DNA from: an uncultured Thermus sp.
Lineage (GTDB): Bacteria; Deinococcota; Deinococci; Deinococcales; Thermaceae
DNA: 64,000 bases
NCBI GenBank assembly: GCA_947085095.1
Contig: CAMTVD010000012.1
Location: forward strand, 1-64,000
Reading direction: 5' to 3'
Part shown: piece by piece, positions 22,943 through 35,251 of the stretch
Numbering within the stretch: the first letter of the stretch is position 1
How the letters are laid out: each line of letters opens with the position of its first letter
Notes under the pieces: generated by a model
What the model saw: the letters and a program-made list of their open reading frames with translations, nothing else
Database searches by the model: none
What the model was told of the DNA's origin: nothing
Position numbers and translations under genes: made by a program

Positions 22943-24003
22943 GCTTCCGTCATGGCCTCCAGCTGGCGCTCCTGGTCGGCCCGCTTGAGGGCCTCCAGAA
23001 GGGGCTGGAGCCTTCCCGAGAGGACGCCCTCGAGGTCGTGGGTGGTGAAGCCGATGCGGTGGTCCGTGACCCGGGACTGGGGGAAGTTGTAGGTGCGGAT
23101 CTTCTCCGAGCGCTCCCCGGTGCCGATCTGGGCCAGGCGGGTCTGGCGGAGCTTTTCCGCCTCCTCGGCCCGCTTCATCTCCAGGAGGCGGCTTCTTAGG
23201 ATCATCAGGGCCTTCTCCCGGTTCTTGATCTGGCTCCTTGAGTCCTGGCAGGTGACCATGATGCCCGTGGGCAGGTGGACCACCCGCACCGCCGAGTCCG
23301 TGGTGTTCACCCCCTGCCCCCCCGGCCCCGAGGCCCGCATCACGTCAATGCGGACCTCGTCCATGTTGAGCTGGAAGTCGGCCTCCTCCGCCTTGGGCAG
23401 GACGGCCACCGTGGCCGTGGAGGTGTGGATGCGCCCCTGGGTTTCCGTGGCGGGGACCCGCTGCACCCGATGGACCCCGCTCTCGTACTTGAAGGTGCCG
23501 TAGGCTCCTGGGCCCCGCACCTCAAAGACCACCTTGGAAAAGCCCCCCAGGTCCGTGGGGTTGGAGTCCAGGATCTCGGTTTCCAGCCCCATCTCCTCGG
23601 CGAAGCGCAGGTACATCTCCAAGAGGTCGCGGGCGAAGAGGGCCGCCTCCTCCCCCCCGGTCCCGGCGCGGATCTCCACGATGGCGTCCCGCTCGTCCAT
23701 GGGGTCTTTGGGCAGGAGGTGGCGCTCAAGCTCCCGTTCCAGCGCCCCCTTGCGGACCAAAAGCTCCTCCTTTTCCGCCTTGGCCACCTCGCGGAGCTCG
23801 GGGTCCTCGAGGAGGCTCTCCGCCTGCTCCAGGTCCTGGAGCACCTTGCGGTACTCCCGGATGAGGGCGATGATCTCCCCCATCTCCGCGTAGCGCCGGG
23901 AAAGGGTCTGGTAGCGCTTCTGGTCCTTGAGGACCTCGGGATCAGCAAGAAGCGCTTCCAGCTCCCGGTACTCCTCCTCCAAGCGTGCGAGCTTATCCAG
24001 CAT
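22939..24003 (-). CDS. prfA: Peptide chain release factor 1
   Basis: PAT recognition loop (VQRVPATE), GPGGQGVNTTDSA, RSEKIRTYNFPQ. Confidence 0.97.
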   Translation of the reverse strand: MLDKLARLEEEYRELEALLADPEVLKDQKRYQTLSRRYAEMGEIIALIREYRKVLQDLEQAESLLEDPELREVAKAEKEELLVRKGALERELERHLLPKDPMDERDAIVEIRAGTGGEEAALFARDLLEMYLRFAEEMGLETEILDSNPTDLGGFSKVVFEVRGPGAYGTFKYESGVHRVQRVPATETQGRIHTSTATVAVLPKAEEADFQLNMDEVRIDVMRASGPGGQGVNTTDSAVRVVHLPTGIMVTCQDSRSQIKNREKALMILRSRLLEMKRAEEAEKLRQTRLAQIGTGERSEKIRTYNFPQSRVTDHRIGFTTHDLEGVLSGRLQPLLEALKRADQERQLEAMTEA

Positions 24004-24032
24004 ACCTGATTCCAGGATACCCCATATGGGGC

Positions 24033-24061
24033 TTGACAGGAGGTTTAGGTATACCTAAAAT
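24033..24061 (+). promoter_or_regulatory. ZIP transporter promoter with DtxR/MntR-type operator
   Basis: TTGACA (24033-24038), 17 bp spacer, TAAAAT (24056-24061); perfect palindrome TTTAGGTATACCTAAA at 24044-24059. Confidence 0.85.
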
Positions 24062-24068
24062 TCCCCTT

Positions 24069-24866
24069 GTGGAAGGTCCCCTGTTCTACGCCCTCCTAGG
24101 CGGCCTCTTTACCTGGGGGCTCACCGCGGTGGGGGCAGCCAGCGTCTTCCTCGCCCGGGAGCCCAGCCGCAAGCTCCTGGACGGGATGCTGGGCTTCGCC
24201 GCCGGGGTGATGCTGGCGGCCAGCGTCTTCTCCCTCCTCGTCCCCGGCATGGAGATGGCCGAGGCCCAGGGCATGAACCCTTGGGTCCCCGCCGTGGTGG
24301 GCTTTCTGGCGGGAGGGGCCCTCCTCCGGCTTCTGGACCGCCTCCTGCCCCACCTGCACCTGGGCTTCCCCATGGAGGCGCGGGAAGGGATCCCCACCCC
24401 TTGGCGGCGCACCACCTTGCTCATCCTGGCCATCACCCTGCACAACTTCCCCGAGGGGCTGGCGGTGGGGGTGGCCTTTGGCGCGGCTGGCCTGGACCCC
24501 ACGGGAGCAGCCACCCTGGGGGGGGCCATCGCCCTGGCCCTAGGCCTCGGCCTGCAGAACCTACCCGAGGGCCTGGCCGTGGCCTGGCCCCTGAGGCGGG
24601 CCGGAGTAGGGGCGGGCCTGGCCTGGTTCTACGGTCAGCTCTCGGCCATCGTGGAACCCATCGGGGCGGTCCTGGGAGCGCTTTTGGTCCAGGAGATGCT
24701 GGCCCTTCTCCCCTACCTCATGGCCCTGGCGGCGGGGGCCATGGTCTTCGTGATCGTGGAGGAGGTCATCCCCGAAAGCCAGCGGGAAGGCAACGGGGAC
24801 ATCTCCACCTTCGGGGTGATGACGGGCTTCGCCCTGATGATGGCCCTGGACGTGGCCCTGGGCTAG
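24069..24866 (+). CDS. ZIP (GufA/ZupT) family divalent metal transporter
   Basis: GFAAGVMLAAS, LHNFPEG, QNLPEG, EEVIPES; probable leaderless GTG start. Confidence 0.9.
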   Translation: MEGPLFYALLGGLFTWGLTAVGAASVFLAREPSRKLLDGMLGFAAGVMLAASVFSLLVPGMEMAEAQGMNPWVPAVVGFLAGGALLRLLDRLLPHLHLGFPMEAREGIPTPWRRTTLLILAITLHNFPEGLAVGVAFGAAGLDPTGAATLGGAIALALGLGLQNLPEGLAVAWPLRRAGVGAGLAWFYGQLSAIVEPIGAVLGALLVQEMLALLPYLMALAAGAMVFVIVEEVIPESQREGNGDISTFGVMTGFALMMALDVALG

Positions 24867-25198
24867 GCCCCCCTGCCCTTGCCCCAGCGCTCCCTGAGGA
24901 GGTGGGCGGCCTCCTCGGCCTTGAGCTTGGCGGTTTCCGCCGCCTTCTTGGCCAGCTCAGAAACCTCCTTCAGCTTGTCGGGAATGCCGTCCTTGTCCTG
25001 GTCCAGCTCTGCCAGGCGGCTTTTGGCCTCCTTTAGGGCCTTTTCCGCCTCCTCAAGGGCCTTCTCCACCACATCGGGACGCCCGTCCTTGTTCTGGTCC
25101 AACTTTTCCCTAAGCTCCTCTAAGCGCTTCTCCGCCTCCTGGGCCACCGACCTGGCCGCCTCCTTGGCCTTCTCCAAAAGCCCCTTGAAATCCATCAT
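24863..25198 (-). CDS. Helical hypothetical protein with two DxDxDG loops
   Basis: LDQNKDGRPD and LDQDKDGIPD in repeated amphipathic helices. Confidence 0.75.
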   Translation of the reverse strand: MMDFKGLLEKAKEAARSVAQEAEKRLEELREKLDQNKDGRPDVVEKALEEAEKALKEAKSRLAELDQDKDGIPDKLKEVSELAKKAAETAKLKAEEAAHLLRERWGKGRGA

Positions 25199-25207
25199 GT
25201 TTTTATT

Positions 25208-25810
25208 CTACAGGAGGGCCCGCAGGTCCGCCACCACCTTGGAGAGGTACCCCGGATTCTGGGCGAAGTTCAGCTTTTCTGGGCTCAGGAGGAGGACCAG
25301 CTTCCCCCCTTGGACCACAAAGGTGGTGGCCGTGTGGTCCACCAGGTACTCCCCGGGGCCCCGGTACTGGCTCTTTTGGTAGTAGACCCCAAAGGCGCGG
25401 GCCACCTCCTGGATGGTTTCCGGAGCCCCCGTAACTCCCAGAAAGTCGGGGTTAAAGGCTTTGGCGTACTGGTCGGCGATCTCAGGGGTGTCCCGCTCGG
25501 GGTCCACGCTGATGAAGATCACCTGGACCCGTTTCCTCTCCTCGGGGGAAAGCCCCTCGTAGGCCTGTTTGAGAGCCAGCATGGTGGTGGGGCAGACGTC
25601 GGGGCAGTGCACGAACCCGAAGAAGATGAGGACCAGCTTGTCCTGGAAATCCGAAAGGCGCACGGAGCCCCCCGGGCCTTCCAGGGTGAAGTCCACAGGC
25701 TTTGGGTTCAAAAGGCGGGTGCCGAAAAAGCTGTGGGAGCCCTTAGGGACGAGGAGGTAGCCGAGGCCCAAAAGGGCCAGGAGGATAAGGATGGGCAAAA
25801 AGCGCTTCAT
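25208..25810 (-). CDS. SCO1/SenC family copper protein
   Basis: FGFVHCPDVCP, SVDPERD, DH motif; N-terminal TM. Confidence 0.93.
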   Translation of the reverse strand: MKRFLPILILLALLGLGYLLVPKGSHSFFGTRLLNPKPVDFTLEGPGGSVRLSDFQDKLVLIFFGFVHCPDVCPTTMLALKQAYEGLSPEERKRVQVIFISVDPERDTPEIADQYAKAFNPDFLGVTGAPETIQEVARAFGVYYQKSQYRGPGEYLVDHTATTFVVQGGKLVLLLSPEKLNFAQNPGYLSKVVADLRALL

Positions 25811-26226
25811 CGCATCTCCACAGGCAGGATCACCTTGAGTTTCCCGCCCCCTTGGAAGAGGAGGGTGATCTCCACCTTCTCCCCCGCCTTCAGGGGCCGC
25901 TTCAGGCCCTCCAGCATGAGGTGGTAGCCCCCGGGCGCAAAGACCACCTTACCCCCCGGGGGAATCTCCACCTGGGGCAGGGGGCGCATGCCCAGCACCG
26001 TGTGCCCCCCCCTCTGCTCCCGGTGGTCCCGGTGGAGGGAAACCCGCTCCGCCAGGGGCGATTCTGCCCCCACAAGCCTCAGGGGAGTCTTGGCCCGGTT
26101 CTCCAGGGTGAGGTAGGCGGCGGTGTCCCGCACCACGGGGGGGACCAGGCGCACCCAGCCGGGCACCGCCACCACCTGGGCCAGGGCGGGCAGGGCCAGG
26201 AGGGTAAGGGCTAAAAGCCGCTTCAC
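25807..26226 (-). CDS. Periplasmic copper chaperone PCu(A)C
   Basis: Signal peptide; TAAYLTLEN, H..GM, PGGYHLML. Confidence 0.92.
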   Translation of the reverse strand: MKRLLALTLLALPALAQVVAVPGWVRLVPPVVRDTAAYLTLENRAKTPLRLVGAESPLAERVSLHRDHREQRGGHTVLGMRPLPQVEIPPGGKVVFAPGGYHLMLEGLKRPLKAGEKVEITLLFQGGGKLKVILPVEMR

Positions 26227-26250
26227 ACGTACCAGTCTACGGGGGTTTAC

Positions 26251-26310
26251 GGGACAAATGTACTTGTGCCCCAAGGCCCCAAGGCGGGGCCGCAAAAGTA
26301 CAAATGTCCC
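26251..26310. promoter_or_regulatory. Paired operator-like boxes in the divergent pcuAC / nosD-like intergenic region
   Basis: GGGACAAATGTACTT (26251-26265) and AAGTACAAATGTCCC (26296-26310) form a near-perfect inverted pair. Confidence 0.65.
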
Positions 26311-26336
26311 CACCCCCTTCCCTACCCTGAGGGCGT

Positions 26337-27548
26337 ATGCACCCCTTGGGCCTCCTGCCCTTTTTGGGCCTGGCCCTGGCCGTCCCGGTCCTGAGGCTAT
26401 CCGGCGAGGTCAAGGGCCCCCTGGTGCTCACCACCCCGGGCCTGGTGGTGGAGGGGGAGGGAGCAGTCCTTCGGGGAACGAGGGGGCACACCCTGAGCCT
26501 CCTGGCCCCGGGGATCCAGGTTAGGGGCCTAAGGGTGGTGGGGGCGGGGCCGGGGGAGGACTTTTTTGAGCCCGACGCTGCCATCTACCTCAGGGGGTGT
26601 GGGGCCTGCGTCTTAGAAAACGTGGAAGTGGTGGGGGCCCCCACGGCGGTGCGGGTGGAGGACTCCTCCAAGGCCCTGGTGCGGGGCCTAAGGGCCTGGG
26701 GCCTGGGCCACTCCCCCGGAGTCCTGGTCTACCGGAGCCCGGAGGCGGCGGTGGAGGAAAGCCATCTCGCGGGCTACATGGACGCCATCTACGTGGAGTA
26801 CAGCCCCGGCATGGCCATCCGGGGGAACCTCTTGGAGGCCAACGGACGCTATGGCTTCCACGTGATGTTCTCCTGGGGGGTGCGGGTGGAGGAAAACGTG
26901 AGCCGGGAAAACGCCGTGGGCAACGCCCTCATGCACGGAGCAGGGAACCGGGTGGCCGGCAATCTTCTTCTGGGTCACACAACCCCTATCGGCTATGGCC
27001 TTCTGGTCCAGGATGAGCGGGAAACGGAGGTGGCGGCGAACACCTTTGGGGAGAACACCCTGGGCCTGGTCCTTATGGATGCCCAGGGGGTGCGGGTAGA
27101 GGGAAACCGTTTCCGGCAAAACGGCACCGCCCTCCGCATCACCCGGGAGCGGGGGAAAAACTCGGCTCAGGTGGTGGGAAACGCCTTTTTGGGCAACCTC
27201 TACGACCTCCTGGTGGACGACCCCGAGGCCAAGGCCAGGGTCCTCGGCAACGCCTACGACCGGGCCCCGGGCCTTCCCGTCCCCCACCTCCCCACCTCCA
27301 GCTTCGCCCTCCTCCTCGCCCGGCAGCCCGAGCTCTCCCTCTTCGCCCTCTCTCCCGGAGTGGTGCTCTGGGAGGGGGTGGAGGCCCAGGTGCCGGGCCT
27401 GAGGCTTTTGTCCCTGGCGGACCCCAGGCCCAAGCCCCTGCCCAGGGAAGGGGGGGCGCAGGCAGGTCCCATGCTCCTGGGCCTTTTAGGAGGTGTCCTG
27501 TGGTGGCGGTGGAGGCGTTGGTCAAGCGGGAGAGGCTTTCCGGGGTGA
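26337..27548 (+). CDS. nosD: NosD-like periplasmic right-handed beta-helix protein
   Basis: Signal peptide; DAIYVEYS, RYGFHVMFS, beta-helix repeats, C-terminal hydrophobic segment. Confidence 0.8.
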   Translation: MHPLGLLPFLGLALAVPVLRLSGEVKGPLVLTTPGLVVEGEGAVLRGTRGHTLSLLAPGIQVRGLRVVGAGPGEDFFEPDAAIYLRGCGACVLENVEVVGAPTAVRVEDSSKALVRGLRAWGLGHSPGVLVYRSPEAAVEESHLAGYMDAIYVEYSPGMAIRGNLLEANGRYGFHVMFSWGVRVEENVSRENAVGNALMHGAGNRVAGNLLLGHTTPIGYGLLVQDERETEVAANTFGENTLGLVLMDAQGVRVEGNRFRQNGTALRITRERGKNSAQVVGNAFLGNLYDLLVDDPEAKARVLGNAYDRAPGLPVPHLPTSSFALLLARQPELSLFALSPGVVLWEGVEAQVPGLRLLSLADPRPKPLPREGGAQAGPMLLGLLGGVLWWRWRRWSSGRGFPG

Positions 27549-28180
27549 GCCTCCGGGCAGAGGCGGGGGTGGTGGGGCTCTTCGGACCCAACGGGGCGGG
27601 GAAGAGCACCCTCCTCGCCATCCTGGCGGGGAGGCTAAGGGCTGATGGGGGGAAGGTCTCCCTCCTGGGCCACGGCCCAAGGGACCCCAGGGCCCTATCC
27701 CTCCGGGCCTACCTGCCCCAGAACCCCAGGCTCTTCCCCCACCTTAAGGCCCTCGAGGTCCTCAAAGGGGCCCAAAAGGCGAAGGGGCTGGAGCCAAGGG
27801 CTCTAGAGGAAGCCATCTGGCGCATGGGGCTTGAGGCCCTCTTACCCAAGCGGGTGGGGGAACTCTCCGGAGGGCAGGCGAAGCGCCTGGCCCTGGCCGC
27901 GGCCCTCATGGGGAACCCCCCCATCTGGCTCCTGGACGAGCCCACCGCCGCCCTGGACCCCAAGGGGCGGGAGCGGTTTTGGAGCTGGGTGAAGGCAAAG
28001 GGGGAAGGGGTGGCCCTGCTGGCCCTGCACGACCTGGAGGAGGCCGCCCTGGCCCAGCGGCTTTTTCTCCTCAAGGGGGGGAGGCTTCTGGAGGAAGGCC
28101 CCCCGGAAAGCGTCTTGGGCCCCAGGGGAGAGCGCCTCCCCTGGCTGATGGAGGTGGTGTATGGCGAAGACGCGGCGTGA
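27500..28180 (+). CDS. nosF: NosF-like ABC transporter ATPase
   Basis: GPNGAGKST, YLPQ, LSGGQ, LLDEPTAALD; RBS AGGAGG. Confidence 0.8.
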   Translation: MVAVEALVKRERLSGVSLRAEAGVVGLFGPNGAGKSTLLAILAGRLRADGGKVSLLGHGPRDPRALSLRAYLPQNPRLFPHLKALEVLKGAQKAKGLEPRALEEAIWRMGLEALLPKRVGELSGGQAKRLALAAALMGNPPIWLLDEPTAALDPKGRERFWSWVKAKGEGVALLALHDLEEAALAQRLFLLKGGRLLEEGPPESVLGPRGERLPWLMEVVYGEDAA

Positions 28181-28844
28181 GGTTCTGGCGGCTTTAGGCG
28201 GTTTGGTCCTCTCCAGCCCAGCCCTGGCCCAGATGGGGCACGGCCAGACGGGCATGTCCCCCGGGATGGGCAGGGACCTCATCCCCCCGAAGCCCATTCC
28301 CTGGGACACCGGCTCCTGCGCCTTCTGCGAGATGCCCCTCAAGACCCCCGAGGGGCAGTGGCGGGGGCGCACCTTCGCCAGGGGCTTCTTTGAGCAGACC
28401 TATAGCCAGATCGCCTTCCGGGAGCCTAGGCCTGCCCCCCACAACCCCAAGGAGATGGTGGAGGCCCTCCACTTTGAGAGCATCGCCTGCATGGTGAACT
28501 ACGCCTGGGTCCACGGCCTGAAGGACGGGGAAGGGACCACCTTCTACGTGACGGACCGGGGGAGCTACGACCCTAAAGAACCCCAGGGGAGCGTGCGCCT
28601 CATCCCCGCAAGGCGGGCCACCTTTTACTGGGGGGAGCGGATGATGGTGGTGATGAACGCCAGGCTCCTGGCCTTTGACAGCCCCGCCATGGCCCGGGCC
28701 TTCGCCGAGGCCCACAAGGCCCAGCACGGCCGGCAGAACTTCTTCACCTTCCAGACCCTCCTGGACCTCGCCCCCCTGCCCGAGATGAACCTGGTGGCCC
28801 TCCTGGCCCGGCACGCCGGGCTTTTGGAGGGGCACGGCCACTAG
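28161..28844 (+). CDS. NosL-like metal chaperone with Tat signal
   Basis: TRREVL Tat motif; CAFCEM; HFESIACM; Met-rich MMVVMN. Confidence 0.75.
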   Translation: MAKTRREVLAALGGLVLSSPALAQMGHGQTGMSPGMGRDLIPPKPIPWDTGSCAFCEMPLKTPEGQWRGRTFARGFFEQTYSQIAFREPRPAPHNPKEMVEALHFESIACMVNYAWVHGLKDGEGTTFYVTDRGSYDPKEPQGSVRLIPARRATFYWGERMMVVMNARLLAFDSPAMARAFAEAHKAQHGRQNFFTFQTLLDLAPLPEMNLVALLARHAGLLEGHGH

Positions 28845-28883
28845 GGCCTTCCCCCAAGGCCCCGCCGCCTCTAAGGTAGACCC

Positions 28884-29393
28884 ATGGAACGTCGGCGCTT
28901 CCTTGTCCTGCTCGCCCTGCCCCTCCTCCCCAAGGCCCTGGCCGCCCCCCGGGCCCCAAGGGTGGGGGTGGAGGCCTGCCCCTACTGCTTCATGACCCTT
29001 CTGGACGCCCGCCACGCCGCCCAGGCGGTGAACCCCAGGGGCAAAGCCTTCTTCTACGATGACCCCGCCTGCCTCCTGGACCAGCTTTCGGGCTGGGGAG
29101 GGCCGGACCTCGAGGCCAAGGAGGCCTACCTGGCGGACTTCCTGGAAAGCACCCGCACCCAGCCCCTGTGGGTGGCGGCGGAGAAGGCCCTCCTCTACCA
29201 CAACCCCAAGATCCGCACCCCCATGGGCTCGGGGCTACTCGCCTTCAAAAGCCGGGAGAACCTGGAGCGCCACCTGAAGGAGCGTCCGGAAAGGCGGGGC
29301 GGGCGGGTCCTCAGCTGGCGGGAAGCCCTGGAGGAGGGGAAGAAGCGCCCCTGGGTCCCCACCGACTTCTTCCCACCCCCTTCCAAGCCATGA
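28884..29393 (+). CDS. nosL: NosL family copper chaperone
   Basis: RRRFL signal; CPYCFM, YDDPACL, TPMGSGLLAF. Confidence 0.85.
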   Translation: MERRRFLVLLALPLLPKALAAPRAPRVGVEACPYCFMTLLDARHAAQAVNPRGKAFFYDDPACLLDQLSGWGGPDLEAKEAYLADFLESTRTQPLWVAAEKALLYHNPKIRTPMGSGLLAFKSRENLERHLKERPERRGGRVLSWREALEEGKKRPWVPTDFFPPPSKP

Positions 29394-30139
29394 CCGGCCT
29401 TTTCCTGAAGGAGGTGGCCCGCAACCCCTGGACCGCGGGCCTCCTCTTCCTCCCTCCCCTTTTGGCCCTGGGCTTCCAGGGCCGGGGGGAGGGGGTGGGG
29501 CTCGTGGGCCTCTACTCGGGGCTTCTGCTCCTCCTCCCCCCCCTGGTCCTGGCCCTGGCGGTGCCTCTTCTGGCCTCCCGGGAGGAGTGGGCCTTCCTCC
29601 TGGGCCTTCCCCTCCGCCCTTTTCGGGCCTTTCTCCAGGGGGTCCTGGGGGTCTTCCTCGGCCTTTTCCCGCCCCTCCTCCTGGGCCTCCTCCTGGGGGC
29701 GGGGGTCCTGGGGCTCTCCCCGGGAAGCGCCCTTTGGCTCTTCCTCTCGGGCGTGGGCCTCCTCCTCTTCTGGCTGGGGGTGGGCGCCCTCCTTTCCGCC
29801 CTCCTTCTGGAGGAAAGGCGGGCCCTGGCCCTGGGCTTTGGCCTCTTCGGCCTTTGGAACGTCCTCTATAGCCCCCTGGTGGTGGCCCTGGCCGTGAGGC
29901 TGAAGGACTACCCCCTCGAGGGCCTCCTCACCCTGGCCCTCCTCCTCAACCCCCAGGAGGTCCACCGGGTGGGCCTCCTCGCCGGGCTGAAGGCCCCGGT
30001 CCTCACCGGCCCCGTGGGCTACCTGGTGGCGGAGAGGCTGGGGGCGGTAGGGCCCCTTCTGGGCCTCGCCTACCTGGTCCTCTTTGGGGTCTTCCTTTCC
30101 CTTCTCGCCGCCCTGGTCTTCGCCCGGCGGGACCGGTAG
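29390..30139 (+). CDS. nosY: NosY-like ABC-2 type permease
   Basis: REEWAFLLGLPL, LLLNPQEVHR, FARRD end; about 6 TMs. Confidence 0.78.
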   Translation: MTGLFLKEVARNPWTAGLLFLPPLLALGFQGRGEGVGLVGLYSGLLLLLPPLVLALAVPLLASREEWAFLLGLPLRPFRAFLQGVLGVFLGLFPPLLLGLLLGAGVLGLSPGSALWLFLSGVGLLLFWLGVGALLSALLLEERRALALGFGLFGLWNVLYSPLVVALAVRLKDYPLEGLLTLALLLNPQEVHRVGLLAGLKAPVLTGPVGYLVAERLGAVGPLLGLAYLVLFGVFLSLLAALVFARRDR

Positions 30140-30148
30140 CATGAGGAA

Positions 30149-30595
30149 ATGCTCCGCCTGGCCGCCTTCCTCCTCATCCTCCCCTTCTTCCTCCAGCTTC
30201 TGGGCCTGGGGGACACCCCCTTGGGCGGGGGGCTCTGCGGGGAGGTCTTCCGCCTAAAGGACCCCGCCCTGGCCCTCCAGAGCCCGGGCTTCTGGTACGG
30301 CCTCCTCTTCATGGTCCTCCTGGCCCTAGAGCTGGGCTTTGGCCTCGCCCTCCTCCTCCTGCCCCTCCTGGAAGCGCCCCTCGGCCCCAGGTGGCTGAAG
30401 GCCGGGCAGTACCTGGTGGGGGCTCTGGTCCTCCTCTTCCTCCTCACCCGCACCACCGGCCTCCCCGCCCCGGGGGAGGGAGGGCTGGTCTTAGAGAGAG
30501 CCCCTTTGGACCCCCTTTCCCTCCTCCTGGTGGGCCTCTCCCTGGCGGGAGGGCTCCTCCTAAGGGAGAATGGAGGGCATGGAACGGCTTCTTGA
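30149..30595 (+). CDS. Hypothetical membrane protein
   Basis: 148 aa with about 4 hydrophobic segments, co-oriented with the nos-like cluster. Confidence 0.7.
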   Translation: MLRLAAFLLILPFFLQLLGLGDTPLGGGLCGEVFRLKDPALALQSPGFWYGLLFMVLLALELGFGLALLLLPLLEAPLGPRWLKAGQYLVGALVLLFLLTRTTGLPAPGEGGLVLERAPLDPLSLLLVGLSLAGGLLLRENGGHGTAS

Positions 30596-34969: not shown

Positions 34970-35251
34970 ATGACCAGGACCACCGAGCTGGGACCGGATA
35001 CCGTGGAGAACATCCTGAAGCGGCTTCGGCGCATTGAGGGCCAGGTGCGGGGCTTGCAGAAGATGGTGGCCGAGGGGCGCCCCTGCGACGAGGTCCTCAC
35101 CCAGATGACCGCCACCAAGAAGGCCATGGAGGCGGCGGCCACCCTGATCCTCCACGAGTTTCTGAACGTGTGCGCCGCCGAGGTCTCCGAGGGCAAGGTG
35201 GACCCCAAGAAGCCCGAGGAGATCGCCAACATGCTGAAGAAGTTCATCTAG
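34970..35251 (+). CDS. CsoR/RcnR family metal/sulfur-sensing repressor
   Basis: RLRRIEGQVRGLQKM..C..VLTQ..A; TATAAT (34958-34963) 6 nt upstream. Confidence 0.9.
   Translation: MTRTTELGPDTVENILKRLRRIEGQVRGLQKMVAEGRPCDEVLTQMTATKKAMEAAATLILHEFLNVCAAEVSEGKVDPKKPEEIANMLKKFI

Follow-up and report, generated by a model that had tools for sequence, protein, structure and literature searches.

The NosDFYL machine of Pseudomonas stutzeri (PDB 7O0Y/7OSF; PMC13685413, PMC8457098) is reported to work in a cycle in which NosL docks on the nucleotide-free NosDFY complex and gives Cu(I) to NosD; once ATP binds, NosL is set free and the acceptor is brought in (PMC13685413). NosDFYL has been treated as dedicated to N2O reductase (NosZ), and nosD or nosL matches are commonly interpreted as evidence of N2O reduction. 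Sets of nosDFY(L) genes without nosZ have been noted in Bacillus azotoformans (PMC3475470), Haloferax volcanii (PMC9240420) and Parageobacillus thermoglucosidasius, for the last of which NirK was suggested as the client (PMC13068155). For Bacillales, the idea that such a system serves a different cuproprotein has already been published, and the role of nosZ-less NosDFYL has so far been an open remark without a test. A further relevant system is the pair of PCuAC and Sco in Thermus thermophilus (TTHA1943; PMC6696091). Here we describe a five-gene nosD-nosF-nosL-nosL-nosY cassette without nosZ, which lies between PCuAC and a CbaX-like gene in a window of 64,000 nucleotides (positions 1 to 64,000 of contig CAMTVD010000012.1) from an uncultured Thermus sp.

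We have little doubt that this cassette handles copper at all. From our point of view, it is, on balance, best read as an accessory Cu(I) relay in the periplasm, optional and driven by ATP, that would feed the assembly of the heme-copper oxidases caa3 and ba3 in analogy to the canonical system. An intact loader without nosZ, combined with a promoter signal common to oxidase operons, makes an optional copper-supply booster for oxidases likely. The sequence-only reading had proposed a repurposed copper trafficking system for heme-copper oxidases or another cuproprotein, and this proposal is supported by the absence of nosZ from the genomes searched, the retained ligands and the regulatory links to copper and to oxidase operons, from which we infer the client.

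The features of the locus are as follows.

25208 to 25810, reverse strand: Sco (SCO1/SenC), a thiol-disulfide/copper protein with a CPDVC motif, encoded in what was ancestrally the host locus (PF02630, E 5.3e-39).
25807 to 26226, reverse strand: PCuAC, a periplasmic CuA chaperone, which belongs to the type linked to nosD in Thermus and has additional His in its hairpin (PF04314, E 6e-36).
26234 to 26239, reverse strand: -10-like hexamer for PCuAC, read from the sequence; the GTG follows after 7 nt, and the transcript is likely leaderless.
26251 to 26264, reverse strand: palindromic box 1, with the PCuAC -10 hexamer 11 nt downstream; it is less conserved than box 2.
26297 to 26310, forward strand: palindromic box 2, with the nosD -10 hexamer 12 nt downstream.
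26323 to 26328, forward strand: -10-like hexamer for nosD; the ATG follows after 8 nt, and this transcript, too, is likely leaderless.
26337 to 27548, forward strand: NosD-like beta-helix protein with a signal peptide, a His175-Met177-Met199 copper site, Cys88-x-x-Cys91 and a C-terminal hydrophobic helix.
27500 to 28180, forward strand: NosF-like ABC ATPase of 226 amino acids with intact Walker A, Walker B and signature motifs (PF00005, E 6.5e-28).
28161 to 28844, forward strand: NosL-a, with a twin-arginine signal, no lipobox Cys, His/Met-rich ends and Cys53-Cys56-Met58-Cys110-Met165.
28844 to 28877, forward strand: putative short hairpin (28844-28862) and -10-like hexamer (28872-28877) before nosL-b, from the sequence.
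28884 to 29393, forward strand: NosL-b, with a twin-arginine signal, no lipobox Cys and the same five ligand columns as NosL-a.
29390 to 30139, forward strand: NosY-like permease, real start at ATG 29390 (profile match to 7o0y_D, E 2.7e-13).
30149 to 30595, forward strand: CbaX-like protein with four transmembrane helices (4-TM), paralog of the gene after cbaA; it belongs to the host locus and not to the cassette.

A gap of 110 bp separates the leftward Sco and PCuAC genes from the rightward run of nosD, ABC ATPase, two NosL, permease and 4-TM genes, and PCuAC probably starts at GTG 26226 rather than at 26313. This divergent layout had been described from the sequence alone, and all eight genes were found by domain and sequence matches. 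With P. stutzeri NosDFYL the locus shares the four components, the NosD fold with its His-Met-Met site, the Cys/Met ligands of NosL and the NosY motifs. It differs in having no NosZ, in having two NosL with a twin-arginine signal instead of a single lipoprotein, in a NosD with a C-terminal helix and an extra CxxC and without GxH, in a NosF that is about 80 amino acids shorter (226 versus 308), and in the linkage of the module to PCuAC, Sco and an oxidase-operon box. The nosZ-less clusters of Bacillales and haloarchaea resemble it in that NosDFY(L) occurs without an adjacent or any nosZ and in that an alternative copper client has been proposed, and the B. azotoformans NosD also has the C-terminal helix; these clusters are reported in passing genome notes, however, and in the present case the distribution of NirK does not match that of the cassette, while the links lead to heme-copper oxidases. 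The PCuAC and Sco genes are orthologous to the T. thermophilus pair, lie at the same locus and keep its ligands, but the named T. thermophilus control lacks NosD and NosL, whereas the present locus holds the five-gene module between PCuAC and the CbaX-like gene.

The NosD-like protein matches PF05048 with 85.6 bits, and its best sequence match in the PDB is NosD (7o0y_A, E 2.6e-10). Its TIGR04247 score of 166 bits lies under the cut-off of 300, compared to 335-434 bits for nosZ-linked NosD of Deinococcota. Among 767 chains, NosD was also the closest to the predicted model (mean predicted local distance difference test score 82.6), with Z 38.1, a root mean square deviation of 3.1 and 341 aligned residues; since unrelated beta-helices also reach Z 34.0, the fold of the model alone says little. 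His175, Met177 and Met199 are invariant in all 17 aligned NosD and align with His207, Met209 and Met231 of 7o0y_A (counted from the alignment), which we take to be its copper site. All 16 NosD of the cassette type carry Cys88-x-x-Cys91 and lack the GxH motif that is common elsewhere. With a profile of these 16 sequences, nine representatives reached 414-608 bits, whereas other full-length proteins scored no more than 253, and in a FastTree phylogeny of 106 rows they form one branch (support 100, length 1.03) apart from two nosZ-linked NosD of Deinococcota. The NosD of the cassette type hence forms a Deinococcota clade of its own, of which a search of the open-access literature found no published account. 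Near neighbours of the clade in the tree include proteins with N-terminal fusions that resemble NosB as judged by eye. This hints, if only tentatively, at an origin from a clade II nos cluster, as the branch is long and the composition in the FastTree uneven. Natural fusions of NosD with an ABC ATPase and one of a NosR-like protein with NosD occur among the distant NosD representatives.

The NosF-like ATPase matches NosF (7o0y_B, E 1.4e-26), which is not its top match in the PDB, so that its orthology rests on context. Both NosL-like proteins exceed the PF05573 cut-off of 24 bits (43.7 and 29.0 bits) and contain Cys-x2-Cys-x-Met, a later Cys and a C-terminal Met, five ligand columns, those for Zn among them, that are invariant in 15 of 15 rows. 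They correspond to those reported for S. denitrificans NosL and show the Cys/Asp swap which the same paper describes for clade II NosL (PMC8457098). While single NosL sequences had no match in the PDB, a profile of 15 sequences (13 from cassettes and two nosZ-linked) matched solved NosL with E 2.7e-10. All 13 cassette NosL have a twin-arginine signal and no lipobox Cys; the nosZ-linked NosL of two further loci (L027 and L028) do have the lipobox Cys. The permease at 29390-30139 has no Pfam match, but the NosY match listed above was obtained with a profile of nine sequences (eight cassette proteins and one nosZ-linked NosY), and the motifs NP..R and FARR are common to it and a nosZ-linked NosY. 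The five cassette genes are under purifying selection, judging from ratios of nonsynonymous to synonymous substitution rates (dN/dS) of 0.16-0.43 in four pairwise comparisons with relatives, similar to those of neighbouring genes and calculated by a simple counting method on GC-rich DNA. Several relatives have an optional gene for an exported protein with an Ig/filamin fold between nosL-a and nosL-b (e.g., L014:6691-7131), which is absent from the window; the first residue after its signal peptide is His, and a weak lead to YtkA was the only one obtained.

The absence of nosZ from the window, which the sequence-only reading had noted, extends well beyond it. In the genome of origin (93% complete), TIGR04244 and a Deinococcota NosZ match only short CuA/cupredoxin domains, and the same search of five further genomes returned CuA/cupredoxin domains only and no NosZ propeller. 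Across the phylum, nosZ turned up in 25 of 251 sampled genomes, but in none of the 60 other genomes of the family and in none of the 29 of the genus; 36 of the 60 family genomes have a TIGR04247 match. These scores fall into classes: 23 genomes lie above the cut-off and all have nosZ, and a second class, including the window, scores 147-235 bits. The occurrence of cassette-type NosD thus does not follow nosZ, and as the whole family carries nosD and nosL with no nosZ found, annotations of N2O reduction based on these genes mislead. Several nosZ-bearing genomes hold both NosD classes; in L027 and L028 a LuxR-type two-component pair immediately precedes the cassette, and a complete nosZ-nosB-nosL-nosD-nosF operon of clade II is found a few kb further downstream. 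No nosR was seen in the window's list of open reading frames (ORFs), to which the search for it was confined.

Within the genus Thermus, a near-full nosD match is present in 21 of 32 genomes, a fragment in one and none in ten. The fragment (L018, genome G018) is an internal deletion that joins nosD residues 1-109 to nosY residues 168-249. A scan of contigs with NosL-a gave 57 loci, all titled Deinococcota or uncultured bacterium, some of which come from the same genomes as the other locus set, so that the two sets are not independent. PCuAC adjoins the cassette in 15 of them and CsoR-like genes are near it in nine.

The host locus itself is an oxidase-assembly locus. Sco keeps its CxxxC motif and the conserved His and is found there with or without the cassette, and PCuAC aligns with T. 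thermophilus TTHA1943 (2k6w; E 4.9e-39) including the His/Met/His/Met ligands. Nine nosD-linked PCuACs of Thermus, including a second copy in genome G024, form one clade (98/98), and five other nosD-linked PCuACs form a separate one. The 4-TM protein, which the sequence-only reading had listed as unknown and as part of the nos run, is indeed encoded there, but it is neither unknown nor tied to the cassette: it is 41% identical (E 3e-8) to the product of the gene directly after cbaA in the same genome (G000:C22:5637-6134), which we take to be the gene named cbaX, yet represents a second paralog at the PCuAC/Sco locus. In T. thermophilus, CbaX is described as a factor for the insertion of heme a whose gene is transcribed together with the ba3 locus (Werner 2010, via PMC10588857). 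We rejected the 4-TM gene as a cassette member, as this paralog occurs in 32 of 32 Thermus genomes and mostly faces PCuAC directly where nosD is absent; in the ten nosD-less genomes it is faced by Sco-PCuAC in nine cases and by Sco in one, with one promoter box each. Genome G024 has such an empty locus and carries a cassette with its own PCuAC elsewhere (L050:129-3263), where a CobW/COG0523 GTPase gene, a DsrE-like gene and an insertion sequence element lie between PCuAC and nosD. In G025 PCuAC and Sco come after the cassette, there is a single CbaX-like gene, and only a caa3-type subunit I and no ba3 subunit I was found. Judging from these layouts, the unit consists of PCuAC plus nosDFLLY. 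Nearly all Thermaceae genomes searched have two CbaX-like genes, and since the one next to PCuAC persists in the caa3-only genome, the window paralog may be a heme-insertion factor for caa3.

The link to oxidases is regulatory. The 110-bp gap holds two 14-bp palindromes, each followed after 11-12 nt by a TAnnnT hexamer, with a start codon another 7-8 nt further on, and the core columns of box 2 are invariant in nine of nine aligned Thermus loci. A matrix built from six sites upstream of nosD, two of them from the window, found 12 sites of at least 17 bits in the genome of origin compared to 1, 1 and 2 in three shuffles; at 13 bits there was little excess (18 versus 9-15). According to gene labels read from the sequence, the top sites precede a heme-copper operon of the nitric oxide reductase (NOR) type, sox, cbaB, ctaAB-caa3, a globin gene, nirS, alternative complex III, fbc, narC/dnrS and nirK, with the best ones before cbaB, ctaAB-caa3 and the NOR-type oxidase operon. 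The exact pattern occurs one to nine times per genome in all 32 Thermus genomes (reversed control, 0-2 times), and among the 11 genomes with sites listed, all 11 have one some 1.9 kb ahead of caa3 subunit II and ten have one some 0.2 kb ahead of cbaB. The palindrome thus apparently marks an undescribed respiratory regulon of Thermus comprising ba3, caa3, alternative complex III, fbc, nar/dnr, nir, sox and globin genes. At cbaB the distance to the -10-like hexamer is 23 nt compared to 11-12 nt at PCuAC and nosD, so the sign of regulation may differ. Locus L028 also has a 19.8-bit site before nosZ. The box presumably bears some likeness to DosR, FNR or PrfA boxes. The published motifs of NsrR (PMC5748679) and TTHB099 (PMC7662524) both differ from it, and the LuxR-type gene found upstream of nosD in Marinithermaceae-type loci was dismissed as its regulator because the genome of origin has only full-length matches of 30-38% identity. 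A generic scan for promoters and terminators gave nothing above chance, and four metatranscriptome assemblies covering all 30 bins were not counted, as they do so with contigs of relatives, mostly of 80-95% identity, and possibly with DNA carry-over.

A link to copper comes from relatives. In all ten Meiothermus-type loci with upstream DNA (four more have none), a small ORF with CPLC (CxxC) and a terminal RGPP/RAPP precedes nosD, a combination found in 22 of 1312 control windows, and a box of at least 12 bits lies upstream of this leader in seven of nine cases. In Trueperaceae-type loci, an ORF with Cys and RAPP/RGPP precedes nosL-a in seven of 24 (control, 28 of 1312 windows). The CxxC leaders of relatives share with the CruR/DUF2946 arrest peptides the small exported ORF, the CxxC, the C-terminal RGPP/RAPP and the first position in an operon with PCuAC. 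CruR is described as a DUF2946 leader with CxxC and RAPP whose operon is expressed when copper is absent (PMC9426467), and RAPP/RGPP leaders are reported as enriched before PCuAC genes (PMC12992588); neither NosD nor NosL is mentioned in the CruR paper PMC9426467. Leaders of the Rhodobacter CutF type are reported to mediate induction by copper, so that DUF2946-type leaders can work either way.

As to the client, the genome of origin encodes caa3, ba3, the NOR-type heme-copper enzyme with a CuA-type subunit II, NirK, a multicopper oxidase and a small cupredoxin. Among the 32 Thermus genomes, NirK is present in ten (five without nosD), the NOR-type subunit II in eight (three without nosD), a multicopper oxidase in 18 (seven without nosD and one with a nosD fragment) and caa3 subunit II in all. 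Eight of the 21 nosD-bearing genomes have caa3 but show neither a PF00127 match nor NirK, the NOR-type subunit II or a multicopper oxidase, one of these genomes being 65% complete and another (G026) having a third COX1-family gene; they point to heme-copper oxidases as the client. NirK, the NOR-type enzyme, the multicopper oxidase, small cupredoxins and a CHRD-like neighbour were therefore rejected as a dedicated client, as none of them tracks the cassette. The NOR-type enzyme (L037, G000:C5:2411-4636), which is NOR-like and presumably of the eNOR type, has Gln instead of Tyr four residues after the active-site His as well as the CuA-type subunit II, and lies beside genes of the nitric oxide response.

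By analogy with P. stutzeri NosDFYL, the relay could be imagined as follows. The two soluble NosL, exported via the twin-arginine translocation (Tat) system, would fold around a structural Zn and capture Cu(I) at a Cys-Met-Met site; loaded NosL would dock on nucleotide-free NosDFY and copper would pass to the His175-Met177-Met199 site, before ATP binding would free NosL and expose the NosD copper site to the acceptor. The acceptor could be PCuAC, which is co-regulated, or directly the apo form of subunit II, with Sco perhaps keeping the CuA cysteines reduced and the CbaX-like neighbour perhaps serving heme insertion into caa3; these last steps have less support than the NosL and NosD steps. 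A benefit of the relay would be expected when copper is scarce. One could speculate further that the NosDFY hand-over machine was redeployed throughout the phylum as a CuA assembly line for copper starvation, in which two Tat-exported NosL feed NosD for the loading of PCuAC or subunit II under the joint control of an undescribed regulator of respiration in Thermus and, among relatives, of an arrest peptide that senses copper. We offer this extended version tentatively.

Several points weigh against an oxidase-directed relay. The ten nosD-less genomes and G018 with its internal deletion all carry caa3 and ba3 subunit II, so that the cassette is dispensable; the T. thermophilus control has no NosD or NosL match, and its Sco and PCuAC are reported to suffice for CuA assembly in vitro (PMC6696091). 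Canonical NosDFY is described as required for CuZ and not for CuA, although the CuA of S. denitrificans did need NosL (PMC8457098). The box is not specific for oxidases: nar, dnrS, nirK, nirS, sox, fbc and alternative complex III have it upstream as well, and so does the locus where the cassette is missing. No leader ORF occurs in the window, in the seven Thermus loci or in the 12 Marinithermaceae-type loci, the latter of which also have no PCuAC nearby, and the DUF2946 matches of three of three Meiothermus-type ORFs (15-17 bits) stay below the cut-off of 23.7, with no match in two Trueperaceae-type ORFs. Clients could, moreover, be copper proteins outside the families tested.

Some of these points would suit a general periplasmic relay that scavenges or buffers copper without a preferred client and loads oxidases, NirK, the NOR-type enzyme and the multicopper oxidase alike. 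The boxes before nirK and the NOR-type operon, the His-rich tails on NosL-a and on the linked PCuACs and the CruR-like leaders agree with it, as does the proposal of NirK as client of nosZ-less NosDFYL in Parageobacillus (PMC13068155) and Bacillus (PMC3475470). We nevertheless consider such a relay unlikely, given the many carriers of NirK, the NOR-type enzyme or a multicopper oxidase that lack nosD and the eight nosD-bearing genomes that lack all three. Less probable still is a dedicated, so far unrecognised periplasmic copper or copper-sulfur protein with a CuZ-like site outside NosZ: neighbours in the 57 loci hold no conserved candidate beyond PCuAC, ZIP and CsoR-like genes, and no NosZ propeller was matched in the six genomes searched with Deinococcota NosZ, even though canonical NosDFY is described as specific for CuZ (PMC13685413, PMC8457098), the clade has features of its own (Cys88-x-x-Cys91 in 16 of 16, the loss of GxH, two NosL) on a long branch, and a gene of the TauE sulfur-exporter family stands after or before the cassette in two of 20 loci.

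A role in defence against copper excess, with leaders acting like Rhodobacter CutF and the proteins sequestering surplus Cu(I), could draw on the ability of DUF2946-type leaders to work in either direction and on the CsoR-like genes near nine of the 57 loci. We regard it as quite improbable, because the linkage is to assembly chaperones, sequestration needs no ATP-driven hand-over, and no box of at least 15 bits was found at the genome's own copZ-csoR-copA or multicopper oxidase genes (one 13.8-bit site lies within a gene). That the cassette is a decaying relic of a lost nos cluster is hardly credible and already largely refuted: the NosB-NosD fusions of nos clusters among its nearest outside relatives, the deletion in L018 and the patchy presence would fit decay, but the frames are open, the ligands are invariant across four families, dN/dS is well below 1, the promoter is conserved, and the cassette is retained beside a complete canonical nos operon.

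Should the cassette serve a client other than CuZ, copper hand-over would be separated from the long-suspected sulfur role of NosDFY. Thermus is suited to testing this, as species with the cassette exist beside a genetically tractable one without it and the proteins are thermostable. The analysis also reveals the conserved respiratory promoter box and the second CbaX paralog.

Some minor observations concern the surroundings. The overlap of nosD with nosF (27500-27548) is about ten codons longer than in relatives, whose nosD stops earlier. A CsoR-family repressor gene lies at 34970-35251, 4 kb downstream of the cassette, and a ZIP-family metal transporter gene at 23985-24866 is convergent with Sco; in four Trueperaceae-type loci, a ZIP gene stands directly 5' of nosD and is perhaps a source of Zn for NosL. 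Between the ZIP gene and Sco, positions 24863-25198 encode a coiled-coil protein of 111 amino acids with two EF-hand-like DxxKDG repeats, which is patchily present downstream of Sco.

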